Source: a virus
Lineage: Duplodnaviria; Caudoviricetes
Length of the DNA stretch: 64,000 nt
IMG/VR virus record: IMGVR_UViG_3300017914_000750
Location: 1 to 64,000 of that record
Reading direction: 5' to 3' (one strand)
Numbering within the stretch: position 1 is the stretch's first letter; each line of letters opens with the position of its first letter. Position numbers and translations under genes: made by a program. The notes beneath the pieces are model-generated. The model was not told the DNA's origin. It saw only the letters and a program-made list of their open reading frames with translations, and ran no database searches. Positions 17,152 to 24,031 of this stretch are shown here, piece by piece.

Positions 17152-17757
17152 TCATTTTTTTTGGCATAATCTATCTGCTCTGTTTATTACATTCATATTA
17201 TTACCAATGACAATTGCCATGAAAGCATTTGTTGACCTAATGGTTGCCTTGTTTAGATTACCATTCTTTTTATCGTATTGAATTGCTGGTGTCAATACTG
17301 CAAACTTAGTAAGTGTCATATCACTGATTGAAGGTTGCCTACCAAACAATGGATTTGCTTCTTCAACACAATTGTATTTTAAACCACGATAAGTTGACCA
17401 TACATCAGCAACTTGTAAGAAGACAAACACTGTCCAGTCTAAATTAGAAGGGTGGTCAATCAGTTCCCAACGGTGTGTATATTCGAACTTTCTCTGATTT
17501 ACCCTTGACGAGTATTCTATCGACTTCCATAAAGCTTCGTGATGGACAGCAGTGATAAGTTCTTTCCGATAACAACAAGTCCACCCCATCATAATTTCGT
17601 GTTTGACCCTCGAGTCGAGCCCCAAGGTTGACGGCATCTCCAATGACGGAATAGTCAAATCTAACTTCTGACCCCATGTTTCCGACAATACATTCTCCTG
17701 TGCTGATACCAATGCCGACATTAATAGGAGGGAGATTGAGAGGAGAAAGTTCTTCAT
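17152..17757 (-). CDS. Predicted exported/membrane protein overlapping the cyclase gene
   Basis: Signal peptide MKNFLLSISLLLMSALVSA-QE; C-terminal D..ST..G....EANP membrane domain. Confidence 0.65.
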   Translation of the reverse strand: MKNFLLSISLLLMSALVSAQENVLSETWGQKLDLTIPSLEMPSTLGLDSRVKHEIMMGWTCCYRKELITAVHHEALWKSIEYSSRVNQRKFEYTHRWELIDHPSNLDWTVFVFLQVADVWSTYRGLKYNCVEEANPLFGRQPSISDMTLTKFAVLTPAIQYDKKNGNLNKATIRSTNAFMAIVIGNNMNVINRADRLCQKK

Positions 17758-19306
17758 TTAATTCTTTAGTTGCTTGTAATACTTCAAGTGCAGATTTAAC
17801 GGCGAGGTCTGCGTGGTCTTCACAATCAAGGGGAGCATTCCAAAATGCCATTATACAGTCGCCCATGTATTTGTCGATTGTTCCTTTATTATTTATTATA
17901 ATCTTGGTTTGGACATCTAAAAATTTGTTTATCAAGTCTACTAATCCTTCGGGGTCGTCTTTGTTCTTATAAGCTTCTGATATAGGAGTGAACCCACATA
18001 TGTCCATGAACATGAAGGTCATTTCCTTTCTTTCTCCACCAAGTCTCAATTTTTCGGGGTTTTTAGCCAGTTCGTCAACCATGTCGGGAGATAAATATTT
18101 TTGGAACTGCTTCTTAATTTGTTCTTTGAGTTGATAGGTCTTATAATATTTGTTGAAGGAAGCATGTCCGAAAACAATTATGGAGGCTATCGATGAGTAG
18201 AAAGTATCGAAAAGAACGAGAGATGAAGACCACCAATAGAGACCCCCACCCACCTGAAATCCAACAATACCTAGACTCACTATCCCCGAGTAAATTGTGG
18301 GAAGTCTGTAAACCACTACCAATATTCCTAGAAGGACTATCAGAAGAAGAACGAGAGATACAAATTCAAGATAGTAGGATTGTTGTATTAGAACTCCTGT
18401 GGAGACGGAGTGGAGGATATTGGCTTGAACTTCATGGGGATACATTACACCCACTGGGGTTGAAACTGGATTATTCAGACCCTCAGCTGTCAGACCCCAA
18501 ACAAGAATCTTACCCTGAATATCTGACTTAGGTAAATCAACTGCAGATATTCTTTGAAACTCATTCCAATATGATATCATAATGTCTGCAGTAGGAGTTG
18601 TTTCAATAGGAGGTTGTCTTCCTATTCTAATCCATTCTATTCCTACTTCGTCTGTAACTTTAGTTTGATAATTCTTTTGGTCAAACATTGCACGAAGAAC
18701 TTCTAGTGCAACGGAAGGATATACAACACCATTTGCAGATATAATCAACGGTGCAGAACGAACTGTTCCGTCAAAGTTTGCAGTTCCATTTACAGCTGGA
18801 GTTGTAACTGTAACACCTGAACCATATGAATTTTGTTCTAGTATCGGTATCGGTGAAGATATTCCTGAGAAGTTCCATATGTGTTCTGATATATCTCCAC
18901 CCCCAAACACGGAAGTCCTGACATATGGTGCTGACCCTGAGTCCTTTTGTATAGTTGGTGCAGCTGAAAGTATACTCAGCCGATTGACTAATCCTTCTGC
19001 AAATGCTTCGTCTCCTGAAAATCTATCGGGTTCTTTGAATAGTTGAGTATATACATGAGTGTTTGAGTAATGAGTATCAAACATGATATCTGCATATATG
19101 TTTCTTGGCCATGGATACTGACCATATTTTTCTAATGACCTTTCGTCTATATCGACAAGAACAATATTATCTACTTGTTCTATTTCTTTTGATTGGTGTA
19201 GAAAATCAAACCATGACCATGTGATATTTTCTACGAGATAGGGATTCCATATTTTAAGTCCGAATAGTAACCCTATAGTTACTAGGACGGTTTTCCACGA
19301 ATACAT
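17456..19306 (-). CDS. CHASE2-domain class III adenylate cyclase
   Basis: IVLVDIDERSL..YGQYPWPR (CHASE2), three TM helices, FMDICGFT, DKYMGDCIMAFW, GDAVNLGARLE. Confidence 0.93.
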   Translation of the reverse strand: MYSWKTVLVTIGLLFGLKIWNPYLVENITWSWFDFLHQSKEIEQVDNIVLVDIDERSLEKYGQYPWPRNIYADIMFDTHYSNTHVYTQLFKEPDRFSGDEAFAEGLVNRLSILSAAPTIQKDSGSAPYVRTSVFGGGDISEHIWNFSGISSPIPILEQNSYGSGVTVTTPAVNGTANFDGTVRSAPLIISANGVVYPSVALEVLRAMFDQKNYQTKVTDEVGIEWIRIGRQPPIETTPTADIMISYWNEFQRISAVDLPKSDIQGKILVWGLTAEGLNNPVSTPVGVMYPHEVQANILHSVSTGVLIQQSYYLEFVSLVLLLIVLLGILVVVYRLPTIYSGIVSLGIVGFQVGGGLYWWSSSLVLFDTFYSSIASIIVFGHASFNKYYKTYQLKEQIKKQFQKYLSPDMVDELAKNPEKLRLGGERKEMTFMFMDICGFTPISEAYKNKDDPEGLVDLINKFLDVQTKIIINNKGTIDKYMGDCIMAFWNAPLDCEDHADLAVKSALEVLQATKELNEELSPLNLPPINVGIGISTGECIVGNMGSEVRFDYSVIGDAVNLGARLEGQTRNYDGVDLLLSERTYHCCPSRSFMEVDRILVKGKSEKVRIYTPLGTD

Positions 19307-20001
19307 TATTGTTGTGTTACATTAACCGTGCAACCACCAACTGTATAACAGTTTTGGGTTAGTGTATATGATTGATTTGTTGAACCTTGTTGTAAAAGAT
19401 TTAAAGTTGTATGTTGTGTTCCTTGTAATCTAATTTGTGCATTATGATTACCGCTTCCTTTTTGCATAACATCTGTAACAGAATCGTCTGAAATTCCATA
19501 GAAGTATACATGACTGTAATGTGTTCCTGTTCCCTCTTGCCAATTCTCATGAGTTACACCGTCAACATGGATATCTAAATTGTGAGTATGGTCTCCACTT
19601 TGATAGATATCTACTTCATTATTATTACCCCATATGTGTCTACCATATGTTGCACCGTCATATTGAACTACTGTTTCAGTATTACCTGAACCGTCAACAT
19701 CACCACCCCATGATTTACCTGAACCCCAATATGAAACCCATGATACAGAATTACCTACTCCGTATTGTGTAATATTAAATTCATTGTTTGCATGGTCAAA
19801 AGAGAAGTTGATTGTATTTCCATATCCTAACTGTTGGAGATTTAATTCTACATTATCTCCTCCATTCAGTTGTTCTACATGGATATGATTATCATCAGTT
19901 GGGCCTGCAAATACTGGTGCAACTATGAGCATAAATGGAGCCCAAGGTGCAACCCAGTATTTGAAAAATGTTTTTTTAAATCCCTTTAAAAAATCAACCA
20001 T
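19306..20001 (-). CDS. Curlin-repeat secreted protein (CsgA/CsgB-like)
   Basis: Signal peptide ending VFA-G; repeated Q.G..N beta-arc units; start moved to MVDFLK. Confidence 0.7.
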   Translation of the reverse strand: MVDFLKGFKKTFFKYWVAPWAPFMLIVAPVFAGPTDDNHIHVEQLNGGDNVELNLQQLGYGNTINFSFDHANNEFNITQYGVGNSVSWVSYWGSGKSWGGDVDGSGNTETVVQYDGATYGRHIWGNNNEVDIYQSGDHTHNLDIHVDGVTHENWQEGTGTHYSHVYFYGISDDSVTDVMQKGSGNHNAQIRLQGTQHTTLNLLQQGSTNQSYTLTQNCYTVGGCTVNVTQQ

Positions 20002-20132
20002 ATTAATAATCCTAAAATAAGACCTTTTGCATATGCAATCCACATTGCGTGGTATTCTGATATTTGAAGTCTTTCTATCCACTTATAAGTCAAATCTTCA
20101 TGCCATGATAAAAATTTGTGTAAGTAGTCCAT
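19986..20132 (-). CDS. Small membrane protein (48 aa)
   Basis: Hand translation MDYLHKFLSWHEDLTYKWIERLQISEYHAMWIAYAKGLILGLLIWLIF; AGGAG RBS; ACTAAATA promoter at 20151-58. Confidence 0.7.
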   Translation of the reverse strand: MDYLHKFLSWHEDLTYKWIERLQISEYHAMWIAYAKGLILGLLIWLIF

Positions 20133-20153
20133 ATTTTCTCCTTAAATAAGTAT

Positions 20154-21305
20154 TTAGTTAGATTGATTAATGAAGATTTGAATAGCTGGGTCTCCATTTC
20201 CAAATTCTATAATACCTTCGTATCCTTCTACTCTTGTATTAATGAAACCTGAATTACCATTTGCAATGATAATTTCTATGATTCCATTTACATCTCTGAA
20301 GAATACTAGATTACCGTCTTCTTCAAATATATTATATTGTGAGTCTTTATTAAATCCAAAGCTTGCACCCTGTAAATTTACTCCCCCACTTGTTGCTTGT
20401 TTATCTTCAAGAGAGGCTGTTGTTCTTGTTAATTCTTCTACGACATCTAAAACATCTACAAGAAAATCAACATCTAAAAAATCTATATCTAATCTTCCAC
20501 CCCTTGCATCATAATCGGGGTCTTCTGCATAGTCGTCATAGTCCTTTTCTAGTTCATTGAACTCTAAAAAGTCTACATCTAATACACCCGAATCATCGTT
20601 CATATCTTCTCTAGCTTGTTCTTCTACGGCCTCCTGAACCTCCTGAGGCGGTGATACAATGAACATATTGTCTATCATAGAGGTTGTTAAGTTATTAATA
20701 ACAACTGAATTTGTAGGTGGTGTTTCTCTTGTAGACACCATTGTTGCTTGATATGCCTGATTTAGTGTTATACTTCCACCTTCATTTGATACAACTATCT
20801 CACCTGAAGGTGTTACTCCGTCTTCATCGGGAAGCAAAATAACCAATGTTCTTCCGAGTTCATCTATGGTTGTTGTAAAATCTGTCCCGTTGATTGCAAT
20901 TTGAGCTGTCGGTGTGCTGATATCTATATTTGCTTTCTTTATTTTATTACCTTTGCCCGAAGCAAAACGGGCGGTTCCTTGAACCATTCTCAAGGACATT
21001 TTTGATAGTGAAGGGTTTGGGTCGTAGTATACTTCGTCTATGTATACTTCAGTGTGTTCTATTAAGTCTAGTTCTTCTGCATCTAAGAACTCTATTTTCA
21101 TTCGACCATTTACGGTCTCTGCAACATCATATAATTCTATTCCATAACCAACAAACTGTTGTGTTGCTTCATTGTTACGAACAATTTGACCAACACCTGT
21201 TGATTCAACTATGTCACCAATGGAGTCAGCATAACTGACTCCACTGAATAACAACAAACTAAGAATCGTTTGACGAATCTTTTTGATTGATTTGAATAAC
21301 AGCAT
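20154..21305 (-). CDS. Periplasmic FecR-domain protein
   Basis: Signal peptide ending SYA-D; D.AET.NG.M.I.FLD, GTARFASG, TPTAQIAINGTDF. Confidence 0.85.
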   Translation of the reverse strand: MLLFKSIKKIRQTILSLLLFSGVSYADSIGDIVESTGVGQIVRNNEATQQFVGYGIELYDVAETVNGRMKIEFLDAEELDLIEHTEVYIDEVYYDPNPSLSKMSLRMVQGTARFASGKGNKIKKANIDISTPTAQIAINGTDFTTTIDELGRTLVILLPDEDGVTPSGEIVVSNEGGSITLNQAYQATMVSTRETPPTNSVVINNLTTSMIDNMFIVSPPQEVQEAVEEQAREDMNDDSGVLDVDFLEFNELEKDYDDYAEDPDYDARGGRLDIDFLDVDFLVDVLDVVEELTRTTASLEDKQATSGGVNLQGASFGFNKDSQYNIFEEDGNLVFFRDVNGIIEIIIANGNSGFINTRVEGYEGIIEFGNGDPAIQIFINQSN

Positions 21306-22002
21306 TATCACTTGTAATATCCAATGTGATGTTTGCATTAGGTGTTGAACAACTATTGCCTGCACCACTTACACATGAACCTGAAATCTGATTAATATCA
21401 ACATCAGCTGAATCACCTTCTAGAGTAAAGTTTAAAGTTTGCTCTCCGTCATTCTGCAATGTATTGATATTATTAGATGAACCTGTAACATCAAAGTTCC
21501 ATGTTAAATCATCGGACTCCCAATCTATATCAAATATATTTGAGCTTCCAATTAAAACTAAATCGGCATTTAGTCTTTCTGCACTTAAACCATAACCTTG
21601 GTCAAGGTCAAACTGGTTACTAGACCCAGTAACATCAAAGTTGATATCTGAGTCATCTGTGCTACCTTGATAACCAATATTCCAATCTATCTTATTTGAA
21701 TCACCAGTAAAATCCAACTTGATTGTTGAATCGTCTGATACTAATGGCCCAAAAAGAATATTAGAGTTACCGTTAAAATCAAAATCTAAATCCAGTCCTG
21801 AACCTGTGATTGTCATTGCAGATAGGGAACCCCCACTTGCATCGTCTCCACCAACTTTGTTACCAAATCCTACTTGGTCAATATAAAGTTTTAGAGTATC
21901 ACCAGTCTGAGTGATTTTAATTTCGTTATCATCAGTGGCTTGTGCGAAAAGAATATTTGTCGACATTAATGCAATTATGCATAAACTAATTATTTTCTTC
22001 AT
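21259..22002 (-). CDS. Curlin-like secreted beta-solenoid protein
   Basis: Signal peptide; ~23-aa repeats with G.SN; acidic; directly follows csgG. Confidence 0.7.
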   Translation of the reverse strand: MKKIISLCIIALMSTNILFAQATDDNEIKITQTGDTLKLYIDQVGFGNKVGGDDASGGSLSAMTITGSGLDLDFDFNGNSNILFGPLVSDDSTIKLDFTGDSNKIDWNIGYQGSTDDSDINFDVTGSSNQFDLDQGYGLSAERLNADLVLIGSSNIFDIDWESDDLTWNFDVTGSSNNINTLQNDGEQTLNFTLEGDSADVDINQISGSCVSGAGNSCSTPNANITLDITSDNAVIQINQKDSSNDS

Positions 22003-22888
22003 TTTCGTTTACCTCTTTTATTTCCCAAAAACCTCTATCGTGTCCTTGGTATATTAATTCCAACACGGCTGCCTCAACAGCAGACCTTGTTGCGTAAGTC
22101 ACTGATTCATTATTACCCACTCCGTCCTCGATTTCTACGAGTTGAGTTCCTTCCTCAATGAAACGGAAGACATCTCCACCCGAACCATATGATAAAATGG
22201 TCTTACGAGTTTGGACATTTAATAAAACTTCTCCAGTAAGAACTGAAACAGCTCTCAAGGAGATTGTGACAGCGTCTTGTCGATACTGTCTACTAAAACC
22301 AATTCCGAGGGTTCGTGCGCCTCGACCCCCAGTCTTGATATTAGAATCATACCCAATGATACCACCTTCGATAATTATTCCAGCGAATAGCAAAGGTTGT
22401 ATCCCTTCATCCGTTTGGTCGGTCTTCTTTGCATAATCTGACCTTGCAGAACGAATGATTTGTCTTTCACGGACTAAATGGTCTATACCGTTTCTTTCAA
22501 CGACACGGAACCATGTCCCACCTCCAGCAGTTTTAAGTGCGTCTATAACCATTTCAGTTGCACCTTGGGTAACTGCAGTAGAGAAACTTGCAATGTTAGT
22601 AACTGATTTTCTTTGTCCTGTTTTGTCTAGTATATTGTAAACTGCAACTATAGGTTTTTCTTCTGCTGGTGGTAAATTTAATAATTCAACATAAGCTGGA
22701 AGTTTTACAACTGTTGGATTTTCTACACAAATATACTTTCTTGATAATTGTTTTTTGACACCTGAATACAAGTCTTTACTAAAACCTTCATTCCAGCGGT
22801 CGCAGTCTTGAGGTGATTCACTCCATTGCGGAAAACTTGCACACCCCGACAATGCAATGACCATTGCCAGTAGACCTACTCTTAACAT
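21986..22888 (-). CDS. csgG: Curli secretion channel CsgG (lipoprotein)
   Basis: Lipobox LSGC; AVY...DKTGQRK, STAVTQG, WFRVVER, ERQIIR, EGGIIGYD, G..NE. Confidence 0.93.
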   Translation of the reverse strand: MLRVGLLAMVIALSGCASFPQWSESPQDCDRWNEGFSKDLYSGVKKQLSRKYICVENPTVVKLPAYVELLNLPPAEEKPIVAVYNILDKTGQRKSVTNIASFSTAVTQGATEMVIDALKTAGGGTWFRVVERNGIDHLVRERQIIRSARSDYAKKTDQTDEGIQPLLFAGIIIEGGIIGYDSNIKTGGRGARTLGIGFSRQYRQDAVTISLRAVSVLTGEVLLNVQTRKTILSYGSGGDVFRFIEEGTQLVEIEDGVGNNESVTYATRSAVEAAVLELIYQGHDRGFWEIKEVNENEENN

Positions 22889-23391
22889 TAAGAACCTCCG
22901 TCACCGCCACCAGTATCGGGGTCTTGACCAAAGTTACCTGTTCCTACTGGAATCTCAACTATGGTTTCAGAACCGTCTTCTGCGACGATTGTTAATCTAA
23001 TAAACTCTGCACCTGATTCATCTGTTATAACTTCCCATGTGATTATGTTTCCTTCTAATGCAAAGGAACCGAATCCTGCTGGATTGTCGTTTGAAAACAT
23101 AGATTCAACTAATTGTTTTGCAAACTGAGCATAGATTCTGCTTTCTAAGTTCCTGATAAATTTAGCAAGGGTGGTGTTTTCTGCTTCTCTTTCTGCAGCT
23201 TTTCTCGCTGCCTCAAGTGCATCTTCGATTGATTTCTTACGCGAGAACTCCTGATTCTCGATTGTAAGATAATGGGCTCCAGTTCCGACTCCACTGAAGC
23301 TTGGATTTTTAAACTTATGAACTATTTCATCTGCATGTGCAGTGAAACTAAAAATTAAAACTAAAAAAGATATTGGTAATACAAATCTCAT
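22888..23391 (-). CDS. csgF: Curli assembly protein CsgF
   Basis: Signal peptide AHA-D; FKNPSFSG; FIRNLESRIYAQ. Confidence 0.85.
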   Translation of the reverse strand: MRFVLPISFLVLIFSFTAHADEIVHKFKNPSFSGVGTGAHYLTIENQEFSRKKSIEDALEAARKAAEREAENTTLAKFIRNLESRIYAQFAKQLVESMFSNDNPAGFGSFALEGNIITWEVITDESGAEFIRLTIVAEDGSETIVEIPVGTGNFGQDPDTGGGDGGS

Positions 23392-23678
23392 TTTTTCTTT
23401 TTCTCCTCTAGAGCTTTCTTTTCCTCAGCGTCTTGTAATATTTCCTGAGTTTCTTTATACTCTAATACTGTATTGACTTTCTGCTGAAGTCTTATCAAAT
23501 CATTATCTAACATTCTGATTTGGTCGAGTAGTTTTATGAGATTGCCGTTTGTTTTACTTAAGGTTGGTTTCAATTCCTCCGTTACAAACTTCCAAACGAA
23601 ATAAATGAAATACCCCATTCCTAGTGCAAGGACTACGGGGAATCCGAACTCTGAAATTAATTGTGCTAATTTGTCCAT
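23388..23678 (-). CDS. Small single-TM coiled-coil protein
   Basis: EFGFPV TM helix; RMLDNDLIRL; paralogous to the adjacent gene. Confidence 0.75.
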   Translation of the reverse strand: MDKLAQLISEFGFPVVLALGMGYFIYFVWKFVTEELKPTLSKTNGNLIKLLDQIRMLDNDLIRLQQKVNTVLEYKETQEILQDAEEKKALEEKKKK

Positions 23679-23971
23679 TAATCTCTTCTTGCATCGACCT
23701 TTCCGTCCTCTAGAAAATTCTCTGCTCTTGCAATCCTATCGATATCGGGCTTGAGTTCCAATGCCGAGGATATTAATAAATCTATCTTAATCATGTCATT
23801 GTTCATTTGTCTAACTCTAGACTCCAATGACCCTATAATATTGTATAGTCCATTCACTTGTCCTACTACTGACTCAAGGATATATCTTAAAGTTAGGAAG
23901 ATAAAGAACGCCATAACTACAGCAGTTCCTATCGGGACTCCTACTTCACTCAAAAACGATAACATATCCAT
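23678..23971 (-). CDS. Small single-TM coiled-coil protein
   Basis: EVGVPI TM helix; RQMNNDMIKI; TATAAATA 5 nt before the ATG. Confidence 0.75.
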   Translation of the reverse strand: MDMLSFLSEVGVPIGTAVVMAFFIFLTLRYILESVVGQVNGLYNIIGSLESRVRQMNNDMIKIDLLISSALELKPDIDRIARAENFLEDGKVDARRD

Positions 23972-24006
23972 ACCATTATTTATACTTTTGAGTTTGTTGT
24001 AGGCCT

Positions 24007-24031
24007 AAAAAAGGGGACTTGAAGTCCCCTT
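24007..24031 (-). terminator. Intrinsic terminator
   Basis: AAGGGGACT-TCA-AGTCCCCTT followed by a T tract. Confidence 0.8.

Follow-up and report, generated by a model that had tools for sequence, protein, structure and literature searches.

The window analysed here is a 64,000-nt stretch of the IMG/VR record IMGVR_UViG_3300017914_000750, a virus record of 93.7 kb with an estimated completeness of 52%. The phage is a marine T4-like virus, and between positions 17152 and 23971 of the window its minus strand carries a cassette of ten genes behind a T4-type late promoter motif. In gene order these encode two small membrane proteins (TM1 and TM2), homologues of the curli secretion proteins CsgF and CsgG, a first curlin-like protein, an exported FecR-fold protein, a 48-residue tail-anchored protein, a second curlin-like protein, a CHASE2 receptor adenylate cyclase and a 201-residue protein with a DUF5658-like C-terminus. 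An initial annotation, made from the sequence alone, had described the region as a late operon that links a curli secretion system to FecR and a CHASE2 cyclase, and had read it as a phage-encoded device for signalling across the cell envelope. Domain, profile and open reading frame (ORF) evidence places all of the listed parts on the minus strand, at the coordinates given below.

The module is already known, and the cassette is an intact copy of the published pelagiphage 'viral T8SS/curli' (type VIII secretion system) module. CsgF and CsgG were reported in pelagimyophages by Zaragoza-Solas et al. 2020 (PMC7029224), who termed the region hypervariable, and in Methylophilales phage Melnitz by Buchholz et al. 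2022 (PMC9004378); neither paper mentions the cyclase, FecR or CHASE2. Wittmers et al. 2022 (PMC9599517) then described the same module in HTVC023P-type podoviruses, adding myoviruses on re-analysis, as one or two 'histidine kinase' (HK) genes followed by CsgF, CsgG, CsgA/B and FecR, often with a second CsgA/B and an adenylate cyclase (AC), and without CsgE. The same authors reported an alphaproteobacterial origin, a world-wide distribution and metatranscriptome expression for the module, reported that the block moves between phage families as one whole, noted that FecR, HK and AC are not components of bacterial T8SS operons and suggested a regulatory role for them. CHASE2 is not named in this paper either. 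The link between curli genes, FecR and a cyclase is therefore not new, having been published in 2022; more recent work on the module did not turn up in a literature search. What is added here is modest and computational, and consists of corrected labels, the recognition of a FecR–CHASE2 pair with its connection to export machines, and the lack of a recognisable receptor for cyclic AMP (cAMP).

That the block corresponds to the module of Wittmers et al. is as good as certain. The CsgF and CsgG genes are adjacent, with a curlin-repeat gene next in order, as shown by matches in Pfam, NCBIfam and the PDB; a FecR-domain gene comes after this first curlin-like gene, then the second curlin-like gene and then the adenylate cyclase; and the small 'HK' genes, TM1 and TM2, lie directly upstream, so that the genes agree and only the kinase label does not. 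Among cultured phages, Pelagibacter phage HTVC008M (KC465899) and Melnitz (MZ577097) come closest, with 35–45% amino-acid identity across the block. Gene content and order, the missing CsgE and the location in a variable region beside replication genes are common to the window, to these two phages and to the published module; the sub-clade represented here differs in adding the 48-residue membrane protein and a DUF5658-like gene that overprints the 3' end of the cyclase gene.

The 5' boundary of the cassette is marked by a terminator-like hairpin with a T-run (positions 24011–24031, minus strand; sequence and stem scan), which ends the upstream gene. Just after the hairpin stands the T4-type late promoter motif, TATAAATA (positions 23977–23984, minus strand), 5 nt upstream of the TM1 ATG. 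Across the window as a whole the motif is not significantly enriched (10 copies against 6.5 expected, all 10 on the coding strand), and window-wide enrichment was discarded as an argument. Its position, however, is conserved in related phages. Of 99 distinct upstream regions from related loci, at least 53 contain an exact TATAAATA no more than 120 nt ahead of TM1. The usual spacing to the TM1 start is 5 nt, with a hairpin and T-run immediately before the motif; a similar hairpin precedes it in many relatives, and CATAAATA variants occupy the same position. This conserved placement before TM1 makes late expression of the cassette a reasonable inference. As a side observation, the TATAAATA-N5-ATG spacing seen in most relatives would leave the TM1 mRNA with little or no leader, unless translation in fact begins at a start codon further downstream.

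Eight of the nine gene junctions within the cassette overlap, by 1–47 nt and, at the last junction, by 302 nt; the remaining junction is a gap of 21 nt. Most of the genes are thus translationally coupled, as had been proposed, and the scan found no minus-strand terminator-like site inside the cassette. The cassette is probably transcribed late and as a single unit, and the description of the region as a late operon holds for a tightly coupled cassette with a conserved late promoter motif ahead of TM1.

The curli-type genes are well supported by profile matches. The CsgF homologue (22888–23391, minus strand) has a signal peptide and matches Pfam CsgF (E = 9.5e-12) and phrog_35372 (E = 8.9e-38). 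The CsgG homologue (21986–22888, minus strand) is an outer-membrane lipoprotein channel with an N-terminal lipobox (LSGC) and a strong match to Pfam CsgG (E = 3.5e-54); residues 58–296 align with structures of E. coli CsgG (E = 2e-51), the constriction-loop Phe included. Curlin-like protein 1 (21259–22002, minus strand) contains about eight repeats of ∼ 22 residues and scores 22.2 bits against Pfam Curlin_rpt, for which the gathering cut-off is 20.7 bits; it also matches NCBIfam CsgA (E = 1.2e-4), and its profile reaches just E = 0.025 against a CsgA structure. Curlin-like protein 2 (19306–20001, minus strand), with repeats rich in Q, N and G, matches NCBIfam CsgA (E = 2.3e-7) and falls slightly under the Curlin_rpt cut-off (20.1 bits), and its family profile finds CsgA (8enq, E = 5e-5) and a curlin-repeat protein (8c50, E = 5e-4). 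Both curlin-like proteins are of the exported type, with N-termini that resemble export signals, which speaks against their being virion parts, the outcome that would have counted against the first reading. No cassette protein matched CsgE, CsgC or CsgD in Pfam or NCBIfam, in agreement with the earlier remark that no csgE is recognisable. Of the components expected for a curli T8SS, the CsgG lipoprotein channel and the secreted curlin-repeat subunits are hence present, and the CsgE gate/adaptor of the gammaproteobacterial type is lacking; CsgE has also been reported missing from alphaproteobacterial loci (PMC9599517). Taken together, CsgG and CsgF are predicted to form an outer-membrane channel that exports the two curlin-like proteins.

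The gene for the FecR-fold protein (20154–21305, minus strand; Pfam FecR, E = 7.6e-8) lies between the two curlin-like genes. An AlphaFold model (pLDDT 78.7) shows a signal-peptide-like helix (residues 3–20), a β-rich domain (∼ 30–200, the FecR fold starting at residue 30), an acidic and poorly ordered linker (∼ 205–300) and a confident C-terminal β domain (304–380). The β-rich domain superimposes on the periplasmic domain of PupR (6ovm; Z 16.1, rmsd 2.6 over 135 residues) and on BDI_1681 (4m0h; Z 13.9); the N-terminal part of the model also resembles a 'cell surface anchoring domain' (5ix9; Z 6.9, 73 of 76 residues). The periplasmic FecR-domain fold is shared with the FecR/PupR anti-sigma regulators of TonB-dependent signalling; however, the fold match ends ahead of the C-terminal STN part of PupR, and neither a cytoplasmic anti-sigma domain nor a membrane anchor was found in the model or by hydropathy, their place being taken by the signal peptide. 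Because anti-sigma domain and anchor are lacking, the protein is not an anti-sigma factor of the FecR type. Among the cassette genes, the only part of the genome searched for them, there is also no ECF sigma factor and no TonB-dependent transducer. In view of this architecture and these neighbours a role in iron–citrate signalling is not indicated, and the label 'iron-dependent regulator' used in PMC9599517 is not supported by the architecture of the protein.

The cyclase gene (17456–19306, minus strand) encodes a CHASE2 domain (Pfam CHASE2, E = 2.7e-30) with hydrophobic segments on either side, followed by a class III cyclase domain (Guanylate_cyc, E = 7.4e-19), as judged from Pfam and hydropathy. 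Residues D435, K479, D483, S553, N560 and R564 are all present. We take D435 and D483 to be the metal-binding aspartates, K479 the substrate lysine, S553 the second specificity position, and N560 and R564 the transition-state Asn and Arg. The full catalytic set is found in 70 of 77 full-length phage homologues, so the claim that the catalytic residues are intact stands, and the phage cyclase is predicted to be active.

The published label does not hold for the two proteins at the head of the cassette. TM1 (97 residues; 23678–23971, minus strand; phrog_18771, E = 4.8e-25), one of the 'HK' proteins of Wittmers et al. 2022, is a single-pass membrane protein. TM2 (96 residues; 23388–23678, minus strand; phrog_18771, E = 2e-28) is its paralogue, with 31% identity (E = 6e-11), and its gene overlaps the TM1 stop by 1 nt. 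Each consists of one N-terminal hydrophobic segment, residues 10–28 in TM1, and a coiled-coil tail. Their matches in the PDB are generic coiled coils only, and the nearest atlas clusters are viral hypothetical proteins. No kinase domain was found in either protein with Pfam or NCBIfam, 39 aligned homologues have no invariant His, and none of 30 longer relatives contains a kinase domain, HATPase_c included. The label histidine kinase (PMC9599517) was thus rejected, there being no HisKA/DHp, no HATPase_c and no invariant His. A match to YvrJ (score 0.87) is a weak lead only.

A small pair of membrane proteins behind a late promoter recalls the proposal of Buchholz et al. 2022 that CsgG and CsgF have been put to new use as a gated pore in the outer membrane, comparable to a pinholin or a secretin, for the timing of lysis, with the rest of the block tuning its opening. 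Besides the late promoter motif and the position of the two paralogues at the head of the operon, there is a weak N-terminal match to a holin PHROG (E = 0.004), CsgE, which is the normal periplasmic gate, is missing, and a structural argument has been made (PMC9004378). The holin match is not significant, however, and holins act on the inner membrane whereas CsgG is an outer-membrane channel; moreover, such a pore would have no need of two conserved, exported cargo proteins with curlin repeats, and the synteny argument of PMC9004378 is indirect. A lysis-timing pore is therefore considered improbable.

The association of the curli genes with FecR and the cyclase was followed from two anchors. 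A search with the cyclase identified more than 550 viral contigs with a relative, and the loci of 80 of these were retrieved and compared. With one exception, every retrieved locus with enough upstream DNA holds TM1, TM2, CsgF, CsgG, the first curlin-like protein, FecR and the cyclase, and the second curlin-like protein was detected in most of them. In the exception, L050, CsgF and CsgG were not seen within 5.7 kb upstream. Gene order is constant save for relocated TM genes in a few loci, and holds to ∼ 41% cyclase identity, HTVC008M and Melnitz included. A search with CsgG, which covers close relatives only (CsgG at least 65% identical), found FecR in 58 of 58 loci with at least 2.5 kb of downstream sequence, and FecR together with the cyclase in 31 of 31 loci with at least 6.5 kb. 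Co-conservation of FecR and cyclase with csgF and csgG, on which the first reading leaned, was thus borne out from both anchors. In four Melnitz-like loci (L050, L091, L098 and L102) the TM pair is inverted and lies downstream of the cyclase, yet still adjoins the block, which suggests that the pair belongs to the module. In an annotated phage collection, a search for FecR and CsgG returned HTVC008M and Melnitz only, and the FecR-like protein as a whole is represented by at least 6472 protein clusters.

Some contigs with the full cassette carry cellular labels, having been placed in metagenome-assembled genomes (MAGs) of Sphingobacteriales, Rhodobacterales, Flavobacteriaceae, Legionellales and others (L083, L084, L086, L089, L090, L091, L099, L102 and L111); further labels are Bacteroidetes, Pirellulales and Pelagibacter. 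All of the MAG-labelled contigs hold the phage TM pair, two are syntenic with the window, and T4-type gp23 genes are present in four of five tested MAGs that hold the cassette. PHROG scans of the flanks were uninformative, with radical SAM matches in L089 and nothing in L091. The MAG-labelled contigs are probably binning artefacts, and occurrence of the full cassette in cellular genomes was rejected, since these contigs look like binned phage DNA.

Two genes of the cassette are less widely shared. The 48-residue protein (19986–20132, minus strand), with a C-terminal hydrophobic segment that makes it a candidate tail-anchored protein, occurs in a subset of relatives only. The 201-residue ORF (17152–17757, minus strand) has a signal-peptide-like start and a membrane C-terminus that resembles DUF5658 (E = 3.6e-5; 24.9 bits, against a Pfam cut-off of 25.2), and overlaps the 3' end of the cyclase gene by 302 nt. 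It is limited to one sub-clade, is missing from HTVC008M-like and Melnitz-like loci, and lies outside the core module. In loci that have the ORF, the +1 frame of the last 300 nt of the cyclase gene contains a mean of 0.34 stops and is stop-free in 41 of 58 cases; in phage loci that lack it the mean is 6.9 stops and none of 43 is stop-free. Since stops are rare only where the ORF exists, the overlapping frame seems to be kept open by selection. There is no ATG between the cyclase stop and residue 146 of the ORF.

The two halves of the module have separate cellular counterparts. Among 401 genomes searched, seven from alphaproteobacteria have the closest CsgG proteins (profile E-values of 1e-64 to 1e-83). 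All seven loci contain a csgF–csgG pair, six have curlin-like genes within 10 kb, and in two (L261 and L266) the order csgF–csgG–curlin is the same as in the phage. Like the phage module, these loci combine a csgF–csgG pair lacking CsgE with curlin-like genes nearby; unlike it, they have neither FecR nor a CHASE2 cyclase nor the small TM pair within 10 kb.

In the proposal of Zaragoza-Solas et al. 2020 and Wittmers et al. 2022, the block as a whole would serve to make curli-like fibres at the cell surface, either for aggregation ('sibling capture') or to shield the cell from superinfection. FecR and the cyclase would then regulate secretion from upstream and would not sense it. Two exported curlin-repeat proteins with CsgF and CsgG amount to a minimal curli set (PMC7029224, PMC9599517), alphaproteobacteria share the csgF–csgG–curlin order, and expression has been reported from metatranscriptomes (PMC9599517). 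On the other hand, cells infected with Melnitz were not seen to clump in the work of Buchholz et al. (PMC9004378). With a single late transcript, cAMP-driven transcriptional control of the T8SS would come late; neither a CsgD-like nor a CRP-like factor turned up in the phage records searched; and CHASE2 is an input domain that faces the periplasm. The proposal that fibre production is the purpose of the block is accordingly regarded as rather unlikely.

The counterpart of the sensor half is found elsewhere. Among 51 genuine bacterial loci with a related CHASE2 protein, a FecR-domain gene is adjacent in 32, and none contains CsgG or CsgF; these loci were chosen by similarity to the phage cyclase, their counts are not phylogenetically independent, and adjacency does not amount to function. 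Thirteen of the 51 encode, in succession, a Slam-like protein, a FecR-domain protein and a CHASE2 cyclase. These thirteen represent five lineages in four phyla, with most copies in one family-level alphaproteobacterial lineage (Hyphococcus and relatives), and the Slam-like protein consists of TPR repeats and an outer-membrane barrel of the SlipAM or DUF2860 type (Pfam). In seven further loci a type I secretion system (T1SS; TolC-like OEP, ABC transporter and HlyD) adjoins the cyclase, and in two of these a large FecR-domain protein is nearby. The loci listed for Slam-like or T1SS neighbours are L103–L108, L112, L113, L115, L122, L125, L132, L137 and L143, and L092–L094, L109, L110, L119 and L129. 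FecR-domain proteins of 780–2300 residues often lie between or beside bacterial CHASE2 cyclases and Slam-like or T1SS genes. A different arrangement was observed in loci of the Desulfobulbales type (L133, L135, L136, L138, L139, L140 and L144), where two adjacent ORFs divide the FecR fold between them (profile positions ∼ 12–148 and 152–210) directly upstream of a CHASE2 protein of ∼ 980 residues with differing residues in the cyclase motifs.

Published work points in the same direction. In S. meliloti a FecR-domain gene, smc02177, adjoins cyaD1 (PMC5498481), and the CHASE2 cyclases of this organism depend on the outer-membrane protein NsrA for signal perception (PMC7529298, PMC13001267); in Burkholderia, a LysM/FecR protein is paired with a CHASE2 histidine kinase in 'BiofilmReg' (PMC5192318). 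FecR-domain protein and CHASE2 sensor thus form a conserved bacterial gene pair, and a CHASE2 cyclase that takes its input from an outer-membrane protein has an experimental precedent in S. meliloti (PMC7529298). The phage shares with the bacterial pairs an exported FecR-domain protein directly beside a CHASE2 membrane sensor, and with its nearest cellular homologues a class III cyclase as output. It differs in the neighbouring machine, which in bacteria is a Slam-like barrel or a T1SS and never CsgG; in the C-terminal domain of its FecR-fold protein, which is specific to the phage, the bacterial homologues aligning to profile positions ∼ 10–210 only and none matching the C-terminal part; and in lacking a counterpart to Clr, the CRP-type receptor of S. 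meliloti, none having been found by a cNMP_binding search of the phage records. Because curli loci are without FecR and cyclase, and bacterial FecR–CHASE2 loci are without CsgG, the phage block looks like a chimera in which a pre-existing FecR–CHASE2 sensor pair has been grafted onto a different outer-membrane export machine, here a curli secretion set of the alphaproteobacterial type.

Separate cellular counterparts, in a region that has been termed hypervariable (PMC7029224), could also mean that two accessory modules merely share an island and a promoter and have no functional connection. This is very improbable, as the order of the genes is invariant, genes of the two halves are interleaved (curlin, FecR, curlin, cyclase) and joined by overlapping junctions, and the arrangement persists in homologues down to ∼ 35–40% identity. 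In addition, the TM pair keeps its place beside the block when relocated and inverted, and the block has been reported to be transferred whole between phage families (PMC9599517).

The reading favoured here is a relay across the envelope. In such a relay CsgG and CsgF would provide an outer-membrane channel in the infected cell, with the curlin-like proteins as its cargo; the FecR-fold protein, by way of its phage-specific C-terminal domain, would report the periplasmic or outer-membrane state of the export machine to the CHASE2 domain; and the cyclase would then alter the synthesis of cAMP in the cytoplasm. This mechanism is plausible but unproven, and we would put its chances at somewhat under one half. 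That the state sensed is that of the pore or of the fibre is speculative, as is an output in lysis timing, superinfection sensing or aggregation. Of the original proposal of trans-envelope signalling, the coupled cassette, the co-conserved FecR and cyclase genes and the intact cyclase stand; the weak part is the far end of the pathway, for which no cAMP receptor was found.

Several observations weigh against the relay. The domain that would make contact with the export machine offers few clues: folded alone (pLDDT 85), the C-terminal domain of the FecR-like protein has a best PDB match of Z 3.4, to an FHA-like fold, and a Foldseek E-value of 0.25, and an atlas search gave no usable match. Its repeat spacing of ∼ 22 residues raised the possibility of a curlin-like domain, which is not supported, hhalign against curlin-like protein 2 returning a probability of only 20%. 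Within the Melnitz-like sub-clade (L002, which is Melnitz, with L050, L091, L098, L099 and L102), Ser replaces the transition-state Asn of the cyclase. The same sub-clade has Asp at the second specificity position, and in Melnitz the cyclase has a Cys-containing C-terminal extension of ∼ 70 residues; a relationship of this extension to the DUF5658-like ORF was considered and dropped, as the two have no similarity. The reader of the message is also missing. A search confined to the cNMP_binding domain, and so not covering GAF or other receptor types, gave no match in the 52%-complete record, in three large related records or in the genomes of HTVC008M and Melnitz. On the side of possible hosts, 61 genomes were screened from the SAR11 family to which a Pelagibacter MAG (G001) belongs, and a cNMP-binding domain was present in only 2 of them. 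A class III cyclase is present in 3 of the 61, one match carrying seven in-frame TGA codons, and some of these cNMP and cyclase matches may be binned phage DNA. If SAR11 is the host, which is not established, a second messenger would enter a cell that has no obvious reader for it. The relay model is weakest at this missing cAMP output, which is also the most interesting question that it raises.

The remaining objection comes from the podoviral modules, which according to PMC9599517, the only source for this point, always include FecR and include the cyclase just 'frequently'; on this basis FecR may be an accessory of secretion and not part of a relay. In its most definite form, this alternative makes the FecR-like protein a substitute for CsgE, that is, a periplasmic adaptor or gate of CsgG, and makes the CHASE2 cyclase an optional addition with an unrelated input. 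It would fit the presence of FecR in all podoviral and myoviral modules while the cyclase is only frequent in podoviruses, the C-terminal domain that has no match in the bacterial CHASE2 partners, and the lack of CsgE in the cassette. It fits less well with the bacterial loci, where the FecR domain accompanies CHASE2 (32 of 51) and never CsgG, or with the myoviruses, where FecR and cyclase were found together in every locus surveyed; furthermore, neither CsgE nor FecR is present in the closest alphaproteobacterial T8SS loci. A CsgE substitute is hence judged unlikely.

Returning to the relay, the bacterial neighbourhoods allow it to be put in a wider form. FecR–CHASE2 pairs could be general monitors of outer-membrane export machines, be these Slam-like systems, T1SS or the phage T8SS, and the phage graft could report the status of envelope and export as cAMP, within a host lineage mostly without cAMP signalling, to an unrecognised phage or host receptor that sets lysis timing or superinfection behaviour. 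Taken as a whole, this chain of suppositions is a long shot, unlikely to hold at every step.

The module is very abundant in the ocean, with more than 550 viral contigs that carry a cyclase relative and at least 6472 clusters of FecR-like proteins. Hosts such as SAR11 mostly have neither a curli secretion system nor a cyclic-nucleotide cyclase of their own, and the module supplies both. Should the relay prove true, the virus would install in its host a signalling pathway that leads from the envelope to the cytoplasm. Beyond the phage, the bacterial neighbourhoods point to a possible function of CHASE2, a domain that is still poorly understood: it may monitor export across the outer membrane, an idea that lends itself to testing.

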